Origin: a virus
Taxonomy: Duplodnaviria > Heunggongvirae > Uroviricota > Caudoviricetes
IMG/VR virus record: IMGVR_UViG_2974594660_000001
Span: 1 to 64,000 of that record
Direction: 5' to 3' (one strand)
DNA length: 64,000 nucleotides
In this document: positions 2,902 to 51,787 of the stretch, piece after piece
Layout of the letters: each line of letters begins with the position of its first letter
Numbering within the stretch: position 1 is the stretch's first letter
Made by a program: the position numbers and the translations under genes
The notes under the pieces: model-generated
What the model was told of the DNA's origin: nothing
The model's input: only the letters and a program-made list of their open reading frames with translations
Databases searched by the model: none

Positions 2902-3474
2902 TTAAAAATCGTAATTAAAGAATCTGTGTTTATCTTTAAGTTTTTCTAAAAGAGTGTTGAAGCTGTTTTCATTCAAGATTAAACGATTTGGGTTATTTGG
3001 AATATAATTTGCTTCAAATATATCCTCACGTGGAGCTGTTACAGTTCTAAAACCAATAACTTGTCGTGATTGTGTTGATAAATCTGAACTATAAAGTCTC
3101 AATTCATTTCCATGATTTTCTTTTATAAATTTGAGATGATCCTCCATATAGCTTTTTTCATAATGGCCATGATAACCTAAGTGATCAGCTTTTAACGAGT
3201 AATAAGAACCATCATCTTTTATATTGCATCCAAAAATGTTTGTCACTTCTTTATTCACGGATGTGTCAAAAACAGTGACTGAACACCTCAAAGATTTTGC
3301 AATAAGCTCTTTCGTTATTGGGTAGTGTTTAAACATATCTTCATAACAAGAAACAAAAGATAAACACGTGCTTAGGTTATTAATTACCAAGTCAAAGTAT
3401 ATACTTGTTAGTTCATTAATATCAAGACTATCTACCCAAACATAATCTCGATTTATACCTCTTAACTGGTACAT
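2902..3474 (-). CDS. hypothetical protein
   Basis: 190 aa ORF. Confidence 0.4.
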   Translation of the reverse strand: MYQLRGINRDYVWVDSLDINELTSIYFDLVINNLSTCLSFVSCYEDMFKHYPITKELIAKSLRCSVTVFDTSVNKEVTNIFGCNIKDDGSYYSLKADHLGYHGHYEKSYMEDHLKFIKENHGNELRLYSSDLSTQSRQVIGFRTVTAPREDIFEANYIPNNPNRLILNENSFNTLLEKLKDKHRFFNYDF

Positions 3475-8119: not shown

Positions 8120-8560
8120 TTACTTGCTTTCTTTGGTGATGTATAAAATTTCAGATGATCGAAAAGCTGCCACGAAATTCTTTTCTTCGTGTCGGTTCTC
8201 ACCATTATAAAAATGAGTCCAAGTTGAATCAGAGATAGATCGTTCTGCTTTTACTGTAAGCAAATCTCCACCTTTTAAACCCACTTTGTATTTATTTAAG
8301 ATTGGCATGTCTTCTCCTAATGGAATACTGATAATATCATTAATTGCGAAGTCTCTAGTTTCATTTTTATCTAAATCTAGAGCTGTTACAAAATACTGCT
8401 CACCTTTGTGGTATTCAGTTTCCCCTTTCCAAATAGATTTTATTTCTATATTCCTAAAGGAAACTACACCTTTCCAGTTCTTGTATAGTATTTTTAATTT
8501 CTTGTTAATAAAAGCAATTAGGACTACTCTTTTAATCCTTTGTTCTAAAATGTTTTTCAT
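8120..8560 (-). CDS. hypothetical protein
   Basis: 146 aa ORF. Confidence 0.4.
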   Translation of the reverse strand: MKNILEQRIKRVVLIAFINKKLKILYKNWKGVVSFRNIEIKSIWKGETEYHKGEQYFVTALDLDKNETRDFAINDIISIPLGEDMPILNKYKVGLKGGDLLTVKAERSISDSTWTHFYNGENRHEEKNFVAAFRSSEILYITKESK

Positions 8561-24967: not shown

Positions 24968-25093
24968 AATAACTCACTTTGTTTGTGGAGAATGGTGGAT
25001 TCCAACCACCCACCCCACCTTGGGTAGCGAACTATCGGATGTTTGATAGACATACGCCCAAGGTAGAGTTGCCGCATGCATCCCCATAGAATT

Positions 25094-25168
25094 GGCACCC
25101 TGTACAGGATTCGAACCTGTGACCTACGATTTAGAAGATCGTTGCTCTCTCCACTGAGCTAACAAGGT
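25094..25168 (-). tRNA. tRNA-Arg (anticodon TCT)
   Basis: Cloverleaf read off the minus strand: acceptor ACCTTGT/ACAGGGT, T-arm ACAGGTTCGAATCCTGT, anticodon loop CTTCTAA, and encoded CCA. Confidence 0.75.
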
Positions 25169-25175
25169 TAATTGG

Positions 25176-25249
25176 TGGCCCTTGCTGGACTTGAACCAGC
25201 GACCAATCAGTTATGAGCTGATCGCTCTAACCATCTGAGCTAAAGGGCC
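25176..25249 (-). tRNA. tRNA-Met or tRNA-Ile2 (anticodon CAT)
   Basis: GGCCCTTTAGCTCAGATGG... with anticodon loop CTCATAA, T-arm TGGTTCAAGTCCAGC, and encoded CCA. Confidence 0.75.
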
Positions 25250-26261: not shown

Positions 26262-26276
26262 ATTATACCTTTTATC

Positions 26277-26348
26277 GCTCCGTGTAGGAATCGAACCTAC
26301 AACTATCTCTTAGGAGGAGATTATTATATCCATTTAACTAACAGAGCA
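26277..26348 (-). tRNA. tRNA-Arg (anticodon CCT), no encoded CCA
   Basis: GCTCTGT acceptor, anticodon arm ATCTC-CTCCTAA-GAGAT, T-arm GTAGGTTCGATTCCTAC. Confidence 0.6.
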
Positions 26349-43133: not shown

Positions 43134-43207
43134 AGGGGATTAGTATATTGGTATTATAATTGCCTCCAAAGCTAGAGAAGAGGGTTCGATTCCTTCATCC
43201 CCTGCCA
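43134..43207 (+). tRNA. tRNA-like gene (possibly tRNA-Trp, anticodon CCA) with an imperfect anticodon stem
   Basis: Acceptor AGGGGAT/ATCCCCT plus discriminator G and encoded CCA. T-arm GAGGGTTCGATTCCTTC. Candidate anticodon loop CTCCAAA; the anticodon stem has two mismatches. Confidence 0.5.
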
Positions 43208-44859: not shown

Positions 44860-47040
44860 ATGACTTATGATGTCATCACAGGAAATGTGCAATTAGACGA
44901 AGATACGTTGTCAACACTACAGGCACAGCTTTCTATATACTTTAATTCCGCTATAGGATATCACGAAGGAGAATTAGGTGTTAGGGCTCGTACTGGGTGG
45001 GAATATTATTATGGTAATCTACCAGAGCCAGTAACCATTGGCTCTTCTAAATGGGTAGATCGTAGTGTATGGGAGAGTTGTAACGGGGTACTACAAGAAT
45101 TAATTAGTGTTTTCACTAGTTCAGAAAATGCTGTACGCTTCTCTCCTATGTATGCTAAAGATGCTGTTCATGCTATGGCATCTACAAAGATGGTTAATCA
45201 AATTTTGTTACGAGATAACGAAGGTTATAACGTTCTCCACGACGCTTTTAAAGAGTGTCTAGTTACTCGTAACTCTTTTATTAAAAGATATTGGAAAACT
45301 ACAAAACATATGTTCACTGAAGAATTTGAAGGTATGACTAAGGATGAATTAGATACATACTTAGCAGGTTTGGATGGCGACATTATAGAATTCTCTTCTG
45401 AAGTAGTCAAAGATGTAAAAATAAAAGAAGATGGATCAGAACAAGAAGTCGAAGACTCTGAAGAGGGTGAATTCGAAGAAGAGCAGGATTATTTTAAAGG
45501 TTATGTAGTTTATGAAAAAACTAAAGAGGGTGTTTGTGTAGAGTACGTTCCTTTTGAGCAGATTCTTATTGAACCAACTGCTAAATCTCTGCACGATGCT
45601 AACTTTATTGCACATCGTGTTCGTAAAACTAAAGATGAATTGTTAATTATGGGTTTCGATGAAGATGTTGTAGAAGAAATTACTTCTGCTTCTTCTGATA
45701 TTGATGCTGGTGTTATTGCTAACTCACGTGTTAATAATATGAACCCAATTAACGTAAGTGATGTCGTAATGACTGGTGATAGCAAGGCTGATAAGCTTTG
45801 GTTACATGAGAATTACATTAAGACATCATTAAGTGATAATAGATTACAAATTTTACAAGTGTTTACTTTGAATGGTCAGATTTTAGAAGTCAATAGGGTT
45901 AATGAGTTCCCATTTGACACATTTACACCATTCCCTGTACCTGGTTCTATTTGGGGTGAGTCTGTTTTTGATATCACTAAAGATATTCAAGATTTAAACA
46001 CTTCACTTATCCGTGGTATGATTGATAACATTATGAATGCCAACTTCCGTAGGTATGAAGCAGTTAAAGGTCAGTATGATCGTGAATCTTTACTTAACAA
46101 CAGACCTGGTGCTGTTATTGAAGTAATGACACAAGGTGCAGTAACACCTTTTCAACACCACCAATTACCGAATGGTATTGAGGGCTTACTAGAGTATGTT
46201 AATTCTAAGAAAGAAGAAAGAACAGGTGTTAGTAGGGTTGGTCAAGGTTTAGATCCTAATGTATTTAAGAATGACAACTCAACAGCCACTGTTAATATGG
46301 TTATGTCTGCTGCTCAAAATAGATTGAGAATGGTTGCTAGGAATATCGCGCAACGTGGTATGATGTCTTTAATGATGTCAATCTATAACCTTGTTCGTAT
46401 GAATGGTACAGAATCTATCTATATTGAAACTGCAACTGGCCCTGTAGAATTAGACCCTAGAAAACTTCCAGTTCGTAATGAAATGATTGTTAGTGTTGCT
46501 GTTGGTGATGGTGAGAGAAAAGAAAGAGCTGCTGCTTTACAGAGTGTCCTTATGGCAATGACTTCAGTTCCACAACTTTCACAATTCATGCAACCACAGA
46601 ATGCTTATTATCTTGCAACCCAGTTGTTTGAGTCTATGGGTATTTATGATACAGAGAATTATATAACACCTCTGGATCAGATCCCACCTCCACAACCTGA
46701 CCCAATTCAAGAGTTAACAATTGACCAGATGAAGAAATCAAATGAACAGATTGCTGTACAGACTCAGAAGATTCTTACTGAGGTTACTGAAGGTTTGAAA
46801 CGTTTAGAGTTTGAACAGATGAAGACTGCTGATGAAATCTCAATTCGTAAAGAGGAATCTAGATCTAATCAAGATGCTCAAGCGGATAAGATGGATCTGG
46901 AAGCGCAGAAGGTTTCATTAGAACGTGCTAAGATTGAACTTGAAAGGGAGAGGTTAGAGTTAGAAAAACAAAGACTTCTACTTGAGGCTCAGATGGAAGC
47001 AAGACAAGAAAGAGCTGTTGCTCTAGATAGGAGACACTAA
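44860..47040 (+). CDS. portal protein
   Basis: About 726 aa protein immediately after terL, with a C-terminal coiled coil. The start at ATG 44860 has an AAGGGG RBS. Confidence 0.6.
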   Translation: MTYDVITGNVQLDEDTLSTLQAQLSIYFNSAIGYHEGELGVRARTGWEYYYGNLPEPVTIGSSKWVDRSVWESCNGVLQELISVFTSSENAVRFSPMYAKDAVHAMASTKMVNQILLRDNEGYNVLHDAFKECLVTRNSFIKRYWKTTKHMFTEEFEGMTKDELDTYLAGLDGDIIEFSSEVVKDVKIKEDGSEQEVEDSEEGEFEEEQDYFKGYVVYEKTKEGVCVEYVPFEQILIEPTAKSLHDANFIAHRVRKTKDELLIMGFDEDVVEEITSASSDIDAGVIANSRVNNMNPINVSDVVMTGDSKADKLWLHENYIKTSLSDNRLQILQVFTLNGQILEVNRVNEFPFDTFTPFPVPGSIWGESVFDITKDIQDLNTSLIRGMIDNIMNANFRRYEAVKGQYDRESLLNNRPGAVIEVMTQGAVTPFQHHQLPNGIEGLLEYVNSKKEERTGVSRVGQGLDPNVFKNDNSTATVNMVMSAAQNRLRMVARNIAQRGMMSLMMSIYNLVRMNGTESIYIETATGPVELDPRKLPVRNEMIVSVAVGDGERKERAAALQSVLMAMTSVPQLSQFMQPQNAYYLATQLFESMGIYDTENYITPLDQIPPPQPDPIQELTIDQMKKSNEQIAVQTQKILTEVTEGLKRLEFEQMKTADEISIRKEESRSNQDAQADKMDLEAQKVSLERAKIELERERLELEKQRLLLEAQMEARQERAVALDRRH

Positions 47041-47276
47041 TGAGTAAGGAAATTAACATTGGTCTACTAAAACAATTACATGGGGGAGGACATCTCTCCC
47101 AAATTATTGAAGATATAAAAACTGATATAATTAAACAGATGATGGCTACTAGAGTTGAAGATACTAATAAAAGAGAGGAACTCTATCAATTAAACCGTGC
47201 TATGGATAAAGTTGAAGCCCAAGTTATCAGTTATATAAATGATGAAATTAGGAAGCAGGAGAACGTTAATGGATAA
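47040..47276 (+). CDS. hypothetical small protein
   Basis: 78 aa ORF. Confidence 0.35.
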   Translation: MSKEINIGLLKQLHGGGHLSQIIEDIKTDIIKQMMATRVEDTNKREELYQLNRAMDKVEAQVISYINDEIRKQENVNG

Positions 47277-48333
47277 TGTAGAACAAGTAGCACAAACAGA
47301 AGATATGTTTATTGACACTGAGAATTTTGATTTTACTCAACTGGATGATATTGTTTCTGATTCTAATGAATTAGGTTACAACACAAAGCAGACTGGTAAA
47401 GATTTAATGAGTAAAGAAGAAATCTCTGACTTAGAATCTGAGGGTGAAGAAGAGGTTGATGACTTACCTGATTATGAAGATGATGAAGGTGAAGAAGATA
47501 CTGATGATTTACCACCTGAAGATGAAGACGAAGATGAAAGTGATGAATCAGATGAAGATGAACAAGATGAAAGCGAAGGTGAATCTGAAGAGCAAACTGA
47601 TGAAGAAGTTGATTATGAAAATTATGAATTAACACTTCCAACAGGTGAAACAGTTGTCCTTAGTGAACTTGTTACTGGTTATAAAGATCGAAAAGCTTTG
47701 GAAGAAGAACGTGCTCAGTTTGAACAAGTTCGAGAAGAGTTTACAGCTAAGTCAGCTGATATTACTTCCAAGCTTGAGTTATCAATTCTAGAAGCTGATA
47801 AAGTAATTGAAGATTATAAAGATTTTGATTGGGAAGACTATCGTAAGAATGACCCAGTTGGTTATGTTGAAAACCGTGAATTCTTAGACCGTTATATCAA
47901 ACGTCGTGAAGAGATTGTTAATGAGTATAATGAAACTAAGAAAGCTGAAGAAGAACGAGCTACTGCTGAGTTCCAAGCTAAAGCTAAAGAAGCAAACACG
48001 ATTCTAGCACGTGATATTCCAGGCTGGAGTAATGAACTCTATCAACAACTTATGATGTACGCTGTTGAGAATGGTGCAGAAGCCAGTGACATTGCTAATA
48101 CTGTTGATCCAATGGTATTTAAATTACTTCACAAAGCTATGCAGTTTGATAAAGGTAAGAGTGTGGTCAAGGCTAAGGTACGTAAACTTGGTGCTCCTAA
48201 GAAAGTTGTTAAGGCTGAAGGCAAGGCTACAACGTCTGTTAAACCTGGTAAAACTGCTTTAATTAAGAGATTAGACTCTGCGGACGTGTCAGAACGTGAT
48301 ATTTCTAATGCGTTTTCTTTCTTAGAAGACTAA
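47269..48333 (+). CDS. scaffolding protein (highly acidic)
   Basis: The Asp/Glu-rich low-complexity N-terminal half and its position between portal and capsid fit a scaffold. GGAGAA RBS before ATG 47269. Confidence 0.5.
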   Translation: MDNVEQVAQTEDMFIDTENFDFTQLDDIVSDSNELGYNTKQTGKDLMSKEEISDLESEGEEEVDDLPDYEDDEGEEDTDDLPPEDEDEDESDESDEDEQDESEGESEEQTDEEVDYENYELTLPTGETVVLSELVTGYKDRKALEEERAQFEQVREEFTAKSADITSKLELSILEADKVIEDYKDFDWEDYRKNDPVGYVENREFLDRYIKRREEIVNEYNETKKAEEERATAEFQAKAKEANTILARDIPGWSNELYQQLMMYAVENGAEASDIANTVDPMVFKLLHKAMQFDKGKSVVKAKVRKLGAPKKVVKAEGKATTSVKPGKTALIKRLDSADVSERDISNAFSFLED

Positions 48334-48468
48334 TAATGGTTAAATAGTGTAATGTAAATTAACACATTGCACTATAATAATATGTTGACACAAAATGATT
48401 GACCTTGAGATTACAAGGTCTTGGGGTCAATAAATAAAATATGTTTAATTACAGAGGGGAATTCTCTA

Positions 48469-49425
48469 ATGGCTGATAATACTTTAATTTCTTATGATTT
48501 GAATGGTAAAAAACTATCATTCGCTAACTGGATTTCTAACCTGTCTCCAACTGAAACACCTTTCGTTTCAATGACTGGTAAAGAAGCAATCAATCAGACT
48601 CTGTTCCAATGGCAGACTGATACGCTAGGTCAGGTAGACCTTGATAACGCAGTAGCAGAAGGCTCACCTGCTGAAGATAAAGAACGCAAATCAACAACTG
48701 TGTTAAGTAACATTACACAGATTCTTCGTAAGGTAGTAAAAGTTTCTGATACAGCTAACGCACTAGCTAACTATGGTCGTGGTAAAGAACTTCAATACCA
48801 AATGGAAAAAGCTGGTAAAGAAATCAAGCGTGACTTAGAAGCAATCTTTCTGAACAACGGTGCTCGTGTTGATGGTACTGGCCCAGGTTTAGGTGATGCA
48901 GGTACAGCTCGTAAGACTGCTGGTTTCAAAGCATTAGTTGCTGCTAAAGATGCTGCTGATACTGATACTGGTGCAGTGGTTCATAAAGAAGCTGAGTTAG
49001 GTGAAGAAGCATTGTTTGATTTAACTTATAACCTGTACTTATCTGGTTCTAATGCTAACATCATCATGTTCCACCCTAAACACGCTAGCTTCTTCGCTTC
49101 GTTGATGGAAACATCTGCTGCTGGTTCAAACCGTATGAAGATGTTTGATGGCCCAGAAACACGTTTCAAAAAATATGTTTCTAGTATTGTAGACCCATTA
49201 GGTCAGGAATATAAATTAATTCCTAACCGTTTCATGCCACAAGATGCGATTTACTTCTTCGCTCCAAGTGACTGGACTCAAATGGTGTTACGTGCTCCAC
49301 AACGTACTAAATTAGCTAAAGATGGTTCATATGAGAAATGGATGGTTGAGATGGAAGTTGGTCTTCGTCATCGTAACCCATATGCTTCTGGTATCTTAGC
49401 TGTTAAAGCTGGTGCGGGAAAGTAA
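48469..49425 (+). CDS. major capsid protein
   Basis: About 318 aa, with AGAGGGGA RBS. Its position before a strong terminator, its HK97-like size and the -1 frameshift extension (next feature) support the call. Confidence 0.65.
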   Translation: MADNTLISYDLNGKKLSFANWISNLSPTETPFVSMTGKEAINQTLFQWQTDTLGQVDLDNAVAEGSPAEDKERKSTTVLSNITQILRKVVKVSDTANALANYGRGKELQYQMEKAGKEIKRDLEAIFLNNGARVDGTGPGLGDAGTARKTAGFKALVAAKDAADTDTGAVVHKEAELGEEALFDLTYNLYLSGSNANIIMFHPKHASFFASLMETSAAGSNRMKMFDGPETRFKKYVSSIVDPLGQEYKLIPNRFMPQDAIYFFAPSDWTQMVLRAPQRTKLAKDGSYEKWMVEMEVGLRHRNPYASGILAVKAGAGK

Positions 49426-49931
49426 CAAGCCAGCCCAAGGACGTAACGATTGAGGTTGGTGACTCACTCACTCTGAGTGCAGACGCTGATAAGTATAACA
49501 GTGTTCAGTGGTTCAAGGATGACAAGGAAGTCTCCGGTGCCACTGGCACTACTTATACAAAAGAGAACGTTACTCTCGGTGACGCAGGTAAATACAAAGC
49601 TGTGTTTACAGGCTCCTATGGTAAGTTAGAAACCAATACTGCTACTGTAACGGTTAACGAAAAAACTGTAGAAGTTGAATCAGTTGAGTTAGATACGATT
49701 ACGGCTGAGGTTAAGATTGGTGAAACCATTGATTTAAAAGCAACTGTTAAACCAGATGGTGCAACTGATAAGAAACTTACTTGGAAGTCCTCTGACACTG
49801 AACTAGCTACTGTAACACAGACTGGTAAAGTTAAGGGCGTTTCTGAAGGCGAGGTTAAGATTACTGCTACAAGCTCAAACGGTAAATCCGCAGAAGCTAC
49901 TGTAACAGTTAGTAAACCAGATACAGAGTAA
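49416..49931 (+). CDS. C-terminal extension of the major capsid protein made by -1 programmed ribosomal frameshifting, adding two Ig-like domains (I-set-like and Big_2-like)
   Basis: The slippery heptamer G_GGA_AAG at 49416-49422 sits immediately before the capsid stop. The -1 frame is open from 49407 to 49931 with no start codon. It encodes QWFKDDKEVSGATGTTYTKENVTLGDAGKYKAVFT (Ig I-set signature) and a Big_2-like domain. Confidence 0.65.
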   Translation, partial: GKVTSQPKDVTIEVGDSLTLSADADKYNSVQWFKDDKEVSGATGTTYTKENVTLGDAGKYKAVFTGSYGKLETNTATVTVNEKTVEVESVELDTITAEVKIGETIDLKATVKPDGATDKKLTWKSSDTELATVTQTGKVKGVSEGEVKITATSSNGKSAEATVTVSKPDTE

Positions 49932-49956
49932 TTTGAAATACTCTTTCTGATAAATG

Positions 49957-49991
49957 CCGATAAGCTCGAAAGGGTTTATCGGTTTTTTTTT
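49957..49991 (+). terminator. rho-independent terminator after the capsid gene
   Basis: CCGATAA-GCTCGAAAGGGT-TTATCGG followed by TTTTTTTTT. Confidence 0.7.
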
Positions 49992-50014
49992 GATCAAAAT
50001 ATAAGGGGTATCTT

Positions 50015-50287
50015 ATGTTCAAACTAAACTACCCAATTGAGACAGAAGAGGCTCAAAAGTTTTGGGCTTCTAATCACAAATGCAATAGGGTAAAATCTAT
50101 AGTGGCTTTCTCATTAAATGAAAAGAACGCTAATGATAATCTTCGTAGGTTTGGTTATCCTAGGGCTTTTAGGAAAAGAGTTTTAGATAATTTTTCACAA
50201 TACATAAACCAACCAGATATGAAGAACATCCCAATGAGTGATATGAAAGATTTCTGGTGGGAGGAAATGCCTTATAAAGGAGAGTAG
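50015..50287 (+). CDS. hypothetical protein
   Basis: 90 aa ORF with an RBS. Confidence 0.35.
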   Translation: MFKLNYPIETEEAQKFWASNHKCNRVKSIVAFSLNEKNANDNLRRFGYPRAFRKRVLDNFSQYINQPDMKNIPMSDMKDFWWEEMPYKGE

Positions 50288-51203: not shown

Positions 51204-51623
51204 ATGGATGAGTTACAAGATTATGAATTGAATAAATCAGGTATACCTAATGTTGGTCAGTTTGGATGGACTTCAACTGATTTAACTGGTGTTACCGATA
51301 TGATGGTATGGGTTCTTGAGTCACAAAAAGCCGCTAAATCAGCAAGTGACGATGCACAAGTTTGCCAAGATATTTCTAAAAACATATCTGATATTGAAAC
51401 TGTGTTTAATTCTAAGATAGATGAAGTTGATATGAAAATTGCGTTATTAAATCAAACCATATCTAATTTACAACCACAGTTAGATTCGTTCAGTAAAAAG
51501 TATGATGATTTTAATGTTAAGTATTCTGACTTCTTGTTTAAGTATGATCAGTTCCTACAGAAACTTCAGGAGTTCCTAGACAAATTGGATGAAGATTTTC
51601 CAGAGGGTTTTCCAGAACAATAA
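51204..51623 (+). CDS. hypothetical structural protein
   Basis: ATG at 51204 after a GGAGAA RBS; the ORF track's 51159 start is less likely. Confidence 0.35.
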   Translation: MDELQDYELNKSGIPNVGQFGWTSTDLTGVTDMMVWVLESQKAAKSASDDAQVCQDISKNISDIETVFNSKIDEVDMKIALLNQTISNLQPQLDSFSKKYDDFNVKYSDFLFKYDQFLQKLQEFLDKLDEDFPEGFPEQ

Positions 51624-51787
51624 ACTATTCCCCACTTAATGTGGGGTTTGTTTTTATACTTAACCACATTTTAAATGTAAACTATCCCTATAGTGTTAAT
51701 AGTTATGTATGATTACAATTCTTACGTAAGTTTTAAGTCTCTAGAGAACTATTATAAATTGTACTGTTATTTTAAAGGGGTATTAAA

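Follow-up and report, generated by a model that had tools for sequence, protein, structure and literature searches.

The major capsid gene of Cronobacter phage vB_CsaP_009 very probably ends in a -1 frameshift site that adds two immunoglobulin-like domains, as published for its orthologues

The 64,000-nt stretch of Caudoviricetes DNA analyzed here (the window, taken at its whole length) includes a head-gene region in which a major capsid gene is followed by an open reading frame (ORF) encoding immunoglobulin (Ig)-like domains, and we asked how the products of these two reading frames are related. Positions 48300-50100 are 100% identical, with equal coordinates, to Cronobacter phage vB_CsaP_009 (LC519601 / NC_048664; Grimontviridae, Privateervirus), and five Proteus phages (J3S, YP1, P59, Privateer, and 3H10_20) share 92.7-98.9% DNA identity with the same region. 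The genes are ordered SU10_portal portal, small ORF, scaffold, major capsid, Ig ORF, and tail genes (Table 1). The body of the capsid protein matches Pfam SU10_MCP (PF17236; E 7.2e-83, 278.9 bits vs a cut-off of 24.1, profile positions 6-289 of 292) as well as the SU10 major head protein gp9 in the PDB (7z45_A, E 3.2e-110), and a Shine-Dalgarno (SD)-like GAGGGG lies 9 nt 5' of its ATG.

The capsid ORF ends with GCT GGT GCG GGA AAG TAA, and its last two sense codons form, with the preceding G, a heptamer in X_XXY_YYZ phase. In the -1 frame, a TAA at 49404-49406 gives way to an open stretch that begins at 49407 and is closed by the TAA at 49929-49931, giving 174 sense codons, 169 of them post-shift, and three-frame translation reveals many stops in the zero and +1 frames 3' of the capsid gene. 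No ATG occurs anywhere in the extension frame, and neither ATG, GTG, nor TTG is found in it between 49407 and 49601. The predicted fused coding sequence (CDS), join(48469..49422,49422..49931), encodes 487 aa with a computed mass of 52.7 kDa; the residues at the fusion junction are ...KAGAGK on the capsid side and VTSQPKDVTIEV on the other, and the junction-spanning stretch of the predicted protein reads ...ILAVKAGAGKVTSQPKDVTIE. The initial annotation had described a capsid ORF ending in GCG GGA AAG TAA with a canonical G_GGA_AAG, a -1 frame open from 49407 to 49931 (about 170 codons) and devoid of an initiator, and products of about 35 and 53 kDa; all three descriptions hold, with the heptamer read directly in phase, no start codon before 49602, and computed masses of 34.9 and 52.7 kDa.

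Table 1 Coordinates of features at the capsid-Ig locus and of related elements
Feature	Position	Strand	Details
Major capsid protein gene (ORF74 in NC_048664)	48469..49425	+	318 aa, 34.9 kDa; ATG 48469; stop TAA 49423-49425
Slippery heptamer G_GGA_AAG, X_XXY_YYZ phase	49416..49422	+	Spans last two sense codons of capsid gene
Zero-frame UAA stop directly 3' of heptamer	49423..49425	+	In six Privateervirus genomes; releases unshifted ribosomes
-1 frame extension	49422..49931	+	169 codons + TAA
I-set-type Ig domain	49425..49655	+	Extension residues 2-78; Pfam I-set E 2.7e-10, 40.6 bits vs cut-off 23.7
Big_2 bacterial Ig-like domain	49674..49904	+	Extension residues 85-161; Pfam E 1.4e-18, 67 bits vs cut-off 22.8
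ORF75 as annotated	49602..49931	+	GTG start, 109 aa
Candidate hairpin	49429..49460	+	10 bp, one bulge, -11.4 kcal/mol, 6 nt after heptamer; first element of stretch 49423-49605
Intrinsic terminator	49956..49991	+	12-bp stem + T8; the only one, 3' of extension, not of capsid stop
Four tRNA genes: Arg-TCT, Met/Ile-CAT, Arg-CCT, Trp-CCA	25093-25249, 26275-26348, 43134-43207
GUA_AAG sites in relatives	L017 (KSP100) 1495-1507; L032 (TacPo2) 1797-1806; L011/L022 (LAh_6, LAh_8-like) 3415-3427; L024-L026 3415-3427

Of the nine copies of GGGAAAG within the window, the capsid site is the only one that reads as G_GGA_AAG in the frame of an ORF of 100 aa or more. Likewise, among the 74 in-phase X_XXY_YYZ heptamers found in such ORFs on both strands, only the capsid site leads into a long -1 ORF, of 169 codons; the runner-up has 33. 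Tandem re-pairing at this site, from GGA to GGG and from AAG to AAA, is cognate for both tRNAs: tRNA-Gly(UCC) and tRNA-Lys(UUU) each read both codons of their pair (GGA/GGG and AAG/AAA). The slip-site codons are read by none of the four phage tRNAs of vB_CsaP_009 (Arg x2, Met, and Trp). Across the capsid gene, GGA is used for 1 of 25 glycine codons, the one in the slip site, and AAG for 5 of 25 lysine codons. Three codons before the ORF79 stop lies another in-phase heptamer, G_GGT_TTT (51605-51611), which opens onto the 33-codon -1 extension; it is probably due to chance and was rejected because this extension crosses a terminator-like hairpin (~51631-51655) into intergenic DNA.

The extension was initially annotated as an I-set-type Ig domain plus a Big_2-type domain, and both matches indeed exceed the curated Pfam cut-offs. 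The I-set region also matches Pfam Ig_3 (E 5.1e-9) and an Ig-like domain protein in the PDB (9ncf_S, E 1e-45), the Big_2 region matches PHROG 215 'structural protein with Ig domain', and the PDB sequence matches of the extension comprise phage Ig-like, decoration, and tail proteins. Judged from these Pfam and PDB sequence matches, the identities of the two domains appear settled. The sole intrinsic terminator comes only after the extension, and the Privateer record annotates a terminator at the matching position, which indicates that the capsid gene and the extension share one transcript.

Conservation within Privateervirus points to the same site. G_GGA_AAG followed by TAA is identical in 6/6 genomes, and the flanking codons differ (GCG or GAG, with two extra codons inserted in 3H10_20). 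The sequence GGT GAG GGA AAG of Privateer and 3H10_20 creates a -1-frame TGA right before GGG, and the -1 ORF opens at the GGG of the heptamer; the two frames thus overlap on the heptamer alone, which pins the shift there. Variable sites of the extension across the six genomes are distributed 30/8/5 over positions 3/1/2 of the -1 frame, a pattern also seen 5' of GTG 49602, where four of the five variable sites are third positions. This suggests that the extension evolves under purifying selection. Privateer and vB_CsaP_009 are syntenic, with 96% DNA identity in the region, 98.8% protein identity in the extension, and a join product of 487 aa in both.

For two relatives, the fusion has been described previously. 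The GenBank record of Privateer carries a two-piece CDS annotated as 'minor capsid protein; frameshift from major capsid protein; Virion protein verified via mass spectrometry'. The corresponding paper (Corban & Ramsey 2021, PMC7881722) gives GGGAAAG as the signal, reports two capsid bands on sodium dodecyl sulfate polyacrylamide gel electrophoresis (SDS-PAGE) and detection of the long form by mass spectrometry (MS), describes the feature as conserved among phiEco32-like phages, and names vB_CsaP_009 as the closest relative. In the SU10 paper, gp9 and the Ig-like gp10 are joined through the same heptamer 'as in phiEco32', and proteomics gave forms of 38.5 and 55.4 kDa (PMC4281155).

Beyond the genus, the slip motif varies. 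The capsid proteins of phiEco32 and SU10 (Kuravirus) are 55% identical to that of vB_CsaP_009, and in both phages G_GGA_AAG occupies the homologous ...AGK position at the C-terminus, with the capsid stop three codons further on; in phiEco32 the heptamer is followed by a 200-codon -1 ORF ending at the stop of an 'Ig domain containing protein'. Escherichia phage PJNS034 (L018) has a start-less -1-frame Ig ORF at the junction with the motif C_CCA_AAA, and a search of IMG/VR with its capsid protein returned no relatives. One metagenomic contig (L028) combines A_AAA_AAG with a 41-codon, non-Ig -1 extension. In Serratia phage KSP100, Pantoea phage TacPo2, Aeromonas phage LAh_6, and three metagenomic contigs (L024-L026), GUA_AAG is the sole candidate slip motif, followed by zero or one codon, then UAA, and a long start-less -1 Ig ORF. 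The junctions of TacPo2, KSP100, PJNS034, and LAh_6 are homologous, with an Ig domain that begins at the junction and has no start codon, and the TacPo2 junction (G GTA AAG TAA CAA CCC) is visibly homologous to that of vB_CsaP_009 (G GGA AAG TAA CAA GCC). The frameshift is annotated in none of KSP100, TacPo2, the LAh_6-type phages, L024-L026, PJNS034, or L028.

A different arrangement was found in 7-11, pSal-SNUABM-01, PKM.Hi.22.6, GAP52, A24, and BUCT695, where the capsid stop is immediately followed by a terminator and then by a second capsid paralogue; no slip site was found at any of these six junctions. In 7-11 (585 aa) and BUCT695 (410 aa), the second paralogue contains SU10_MCP and Big_2 in one continuous ORF. 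Gene duplication is an alternative route to a minor capsid-Ig protein in these sister genera, some of which have exchanged recoding for a duplicated capsid gene. Across the lineages the covalent capsid-Ig product is thus conserved, and the means of making it varies. The duplication-type loci in our collection are L005/L016 (7-11), L006 (GAP52), L007 (A24), L008, L009, L012 (BUCT695), and L027.

The published SU10 record (KM044272; L013 ~3425-3440) was also found to differ from phiEco32 (L010 ~2570-2585) by a 1-nt insertion and two substitutions ~15-25 nt past the capsid stop, the 1-nt discrepancy lying around position 8430 of KM044272. These changes close the -1 ORF ~12 codons past the slip site (33 codons open overall) and place the Ig ORF in the zero frame, with two stops ahead of it. 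The 1-nt discrepancy is probably a sequence error, and may be the reason why the SU10 cryo-electron microscopy (cryo-EM) paper treats gp10 as a separate protein.

Taken together, we consider it highly probable that a -1 programmed ribosomal frameshift at the 3' end of the vB_CsaP_009 major capsid gene yields a capsid-Ig fusion; the initial annotation had proposed that -1 frameshifting fuses Ig domains to the capsid, and this proposal is supported by conservation, coding-type substitutions, the start-less ORF, and published orthologues. In this mechanism, translation would for most ribosomes stop at the UAA that follows GGA AAG, yielding the capsid protein of 318 aa (SU10-type, HK97-fold). The remaining ribosomes, a minority, would slip one base 5' while GGA occupies the P site and AAG the A site, placing tRNA-Gly onto GGG and tRNA-Lys onto AAA, and would resume at GUA in the -1 frame to produce a 487-aa capsid protein with C-terminal I-set and Big_2 domains. 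As a minor component, the long form would assemble into the prolate head by way of its capsid body, with the Ig domains displayed outside. Such outward display is suggested by analogy with T7 10B, whose C-terminus has been used for surface display. Slippage may be helped by the adjacent stop codon and by structured downstream mRNA; from established knowledge, a UAA next to the heptamer may act as a 'shifty stop'.

A single slip could give the same product, with the P-site tRNA-Lys shifting on A_AAG while UAA waits in the A site, and although we regard this route as rather unlikely, part of the comparative evidence is in its favor. UAA directly follows AAG in the six Privateervirus genomes and in TacPo2, and the junctions of TacPo2, KSP100, LAh_6, and L024-L026 retain only GUA_AAG, in which the P-site GUA is unable to re-pair fully, suggesting that A_AAG is the essential part. 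However, Privateervirus and Kuravirus retain the complete G_GGA_AAG without exception, and the capsid stop of phiEco32 and SU10 is three codons off, so that the A site there holds no stop. The avoidance of GGA elsewhere in the capsid gene further argues that the glycine codon is selected as a part of the slip site.

The annotation shared by vB_CsaP_009, J3S, P59, YP1, and 3H10_20 instead lists a separate Ig gene and lacks the join. Under this annotation, a 109-aa Big_2 protein would be initiated at GTG 49602 and act as a capsid-binding decoration, the 180 nt before the GTG being untranslated; the SU10 cryo-EM paper similarly handles gp10 as a separate protein (PMC9509320). We consider this very unlikely, since the supposedly untranslated stretch is stop-free, shows the third-position bias described above, and encodes most of the Pfam-significant I-set domain in its 60 codons, the GTG being Val61 of the extension and cutting the domain at residue 61 of 78. 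The SD sequence before this GTG is also inadequate (only AGGT ~13 nt 5'), whereas GAGGGG at the capsid gene and AAGGGG at the next gene sit 7-9 nt off. In addition, the Ig domain begins right at the junction in four other lineages, and the Privateer record and paper report the long form. A first ATG at 49602, in the middle of a domain, had been part of the initial annotation: the start does lie inside the I-set match, but the codon is GTG. ORF75 is thus most likely an annotation artefact corresponding to the 3' part of the frameshift extension, and the peptides DVTIEVGDSLTLSADADK, YNSVQWFK, and EVSGATGTTYTK would come from the long form rather than from a free ORF75.

It is extremely unlikely that a sequencing or assembly indel, or a decaying pseudogene, has split a continuous capsid-Ig gene with no recoding signal: continuous capsid-Ig ORFs do exist in related genera and the SU10 record seems to carry a 1-nt discrepancy, but the arrangement is identical in six independently sequenced genomes (Iran, USA, China, and Egypt) and present in phiEco32, the short capsid protein is required by a phage as the major species, and the extension is under purifying selection. 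RNA polymerase slippage on GGGAAAG, generating minority -1 mRNAs, is just as improbable, as the runs are only G3 and A3 where productive transcriptional slippage needs homopolymers of ~7 or more A or T, and as the conserved X_XXY_YYZ phase matters only to ribosomes. It would nonetheless yield the same fusion, and some phages and insertion sequence (IS) elements use it (PMC5009743).

Several observations weigh against ribosomal frameshifting at this locus. The evidence for a fusion protein is that of the orthologues (SDS-PAGE and MS for Privateer, MS for SU10) and not of vB_CsaP_009 itself. The Privateer paper terms the frameshift 'apparent', and its MS was performed on whole virions, so that the junction peptide is undocumented (PMC7881722); trypsin cleaves exactly at the junction residue Lys318. 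Peptides from the I-set part, sought in two short Privateer supplementary files, gave no match. No Ig-like or minor capsid protein is visible as density in the cryo-EM head map of SU10 (PMC9509320); this absence is consistent with low occupancy or flexibility, yet remains a caveat. The bare string GGGAAAG is not over-represented in the window (9 copies vs 5.8 +/- 2.4 expected) and is by itself meaningless. At the RNA level, the candidate hairpin 3' of the heptamer is no better than shuffled sequence (z -0.9), an Rfam scan of 49200-50050 at E <= 1 returned no match and hence no known frameshift element, and covariation was not obtained: the KSP100/TacPo2 hairpin has two differences, which are not compensatory.

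Stimulatory elements, either an RNA structure 5-9 nt 3' of the slip site or an SD-like sequence 5' of it, are frequent at sites of this type without being obligatory. The case for a structured stimulator comes from longer folds. Short-range folds (41-121 nt) around and after the slip site were not better than shuffles, and no SD-like run was read at a suitable distance 5' of it. The 183 nt after the slip site fold at -58.5 kcal/mol (z -2.5 to -3.4) and form the most stable of 247 windows sampled over the 64 kb, against a background with a mean z of -0.55 (sd 1.18), in which 2.4% of windows reach z -3. We extended this test to seven loci at six offsets each, from -732 to +183: vB_CsaP_009, phiEco32, KSP100, PJNS034, LAh_6, and two metagenomic contigs. 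These represent five groups, namely Privateervirus, Kuravirus, KSP100 with PJNS034, LAh_6, and the two contigs, which are closely related. The window starting at the slip site had the lowest z of the six offsets in 7/7 loci, with a mean of -4.07 vs -0.4 to -1.2 elsewhere. Among Privateervirus, five variable sites fall in the predicted structure, of which two lie at unpaired bases, two leave a wobble pair in place, and one disrupts a pair; the sequences are too alike for a covariation test within the genus.

Composition and divergence also set this segment apart. The I-set-coding part (49422-49601) has a GC content at third codon positions (GC3) of 0.47, above the values for the capsid gene (0.27) and the Big_2 part (0.26), and it is the least diverged segment in the genus, with 3/186 differences to 3H10_20 vs 48/947 for the capsid gene (Fisher p 0.03) and 35/327 for the Big_2 part (p 7e-5). 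A recent recombinational sweep or acquisition of the I-set module would explain the GC3 and the low divergence equally well as RNA constraint, and a DNA search for a donor of the GC-rich module returned matches in Privateervirus only. Based on the folding results, it is conceivable, and we suggest it only tentatively, that the ~180 nt encoding the first Ig domain also act as a long, structured frameshift stimulator. If true, the lineages with interchangeable motifs (G_GGA_AAG, C_CCA_AAA, A_AAA_AAG, and the non-canonical GUA_AAG) would form a natural series for the evolution of frameshift sites and their stimulators.

In practical terms, the records of vB_CsaP_009, J3S, P59, YP1, and 3H10_20 should carry the join CDS as a minor capsid protein, and the separate entry of ORF75 as a 'structural protein with Ig domain' should be dropped. 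More broadly, our results confirm capsid-Ig fusion by -1 frameshifting as conserved across prolate (C3) podophages. These phages are under study as therapeutic agents against Proteus and Cronobacter, so that Ig domains on their surface could have an effect on adherence and pharmacokinetics. No new question is opened by the frameshift itself; mild novelty lies in the structured mRNA seen across lineages 3' of the slip site, which is a lead and not a result, and in the alternation of frameshifting and duplication.

Other observations concern the host and the annotation of vB_CsaP_009. This phage is recorded from Cronobacter sakazakii, yet is 98-99% identical here to the Proteus mirabilis phages J3S, YP1, and P59, which are nearer to vB_CsaP_009 in the capsid-Ig region than to Privateer or 3H10_20; its host assignment or host range merits scrutiny. 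Upstream, ORF72 is annotated at 47139..47276 in vB_CsaP_009, whereas Privateer, J3S, P59, and YP1 annotate the full 237-nt ORF (equivalent to 47040..47276), the ATG of which overlaps the portal stop, and the start of ORF72 in vB_CsaP_009 is thus probably under-called. Privateer is reported with the same four-tRNA set as vB_CsaP_009 (PMC7881722).

Among known systems, the nearest is the orthologue in the genus type species, Privateer QIN94799 (CPT_Privateer_006), in which GGGAAAG is likewise followed by TAA; it differs by GAG instead of GCG before the heptamer, the source of its -1-frame TGA, by its Proteus host, and by its annotated join. The gp11/gp12 pair of phiEco32 and the gp9/gp10 pair of SU10 are alike in their PF17236 capsid, their G_GGA_AAG at ...AGK, and a -1 ORF with Big_2, but the stop lies three codons past the heptamer and the extension starts with Big_2, not I-set. 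The second capsid paralogue of 7-11, BUCT695, and GAP52, right after the major capsid gene, has the same SU10_MCP plus C-terminal Big_2 architecture; it differs in being a duplicated gene with its own start, behind a terminator, and with neither a slip site nor a long -1 ORF. In T7 (10A/10B), T3 (capsid), and Lactobacillus phage A2 (gp5A/5B), a -1 shift near the capsid gene end gives a minor, C-terminally extended capsid protein. The heptamers involved are in the G_GUU_UUC region in T7 and C_CCA_AAA in A2. The extensions of T3 and A2 are Ig-like but that of T7 is not, and the capsid families differ from that of vB_CsaP_009; frameshift-made Ig-like C-terminal extensions in T3, A2, and Listeria phages form a recognised class (PMC5009743).

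The lambda G/G-T tail assembly chaperone uses an identical heptamer, but the protein is unrelated, is not a virion component, and its site is not beside a stop. Levin, Hendrix, and Casjens reportedly described in 1993 a -1 tandem slip on G_GGA_AAG in this system, at a few per cent and with no elaborate stimulator. By its phase, re-pairing, start-less coding -1 ORF, and conservation, the vB_CsaP_009 site belongs to the same X_XXY_YYZ tandem-slippage class (lambda G-T / dnaX type). T4 Hoc also places I-set-like Ig domains on a capsid, and the extension has PHROG 'Hoc-like head decoration' matches, but Hoc, unlike a covalently fused extension, is a protein of its own and attaches once the capsid is assembled. 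For Hoc-type Ig-like capsid decoration proteins, weak adhesion to surfaces or mucus is said to have been proposed by Fraser in 2006 and by Barr in 2013, and a similar weak adhesion role, put as surface adherence in the initial annotation, may apply to the Ig domains of vB_CsaP_009, which fit the Fraser-type class as an Ig-family extension at the C-terminus of a major structural protein. Overall, with its SU10/phiEco32-type HK97-fold capsid and its orthology to the Privateer minor capsid protein, and given that the Privateer, SU10, and phiEco32 cases are published, the frameshift of vB_CsaP_009 is very probably correct but already known: it is the orthologue of a published, MS-supported frameshift in a well-known class.

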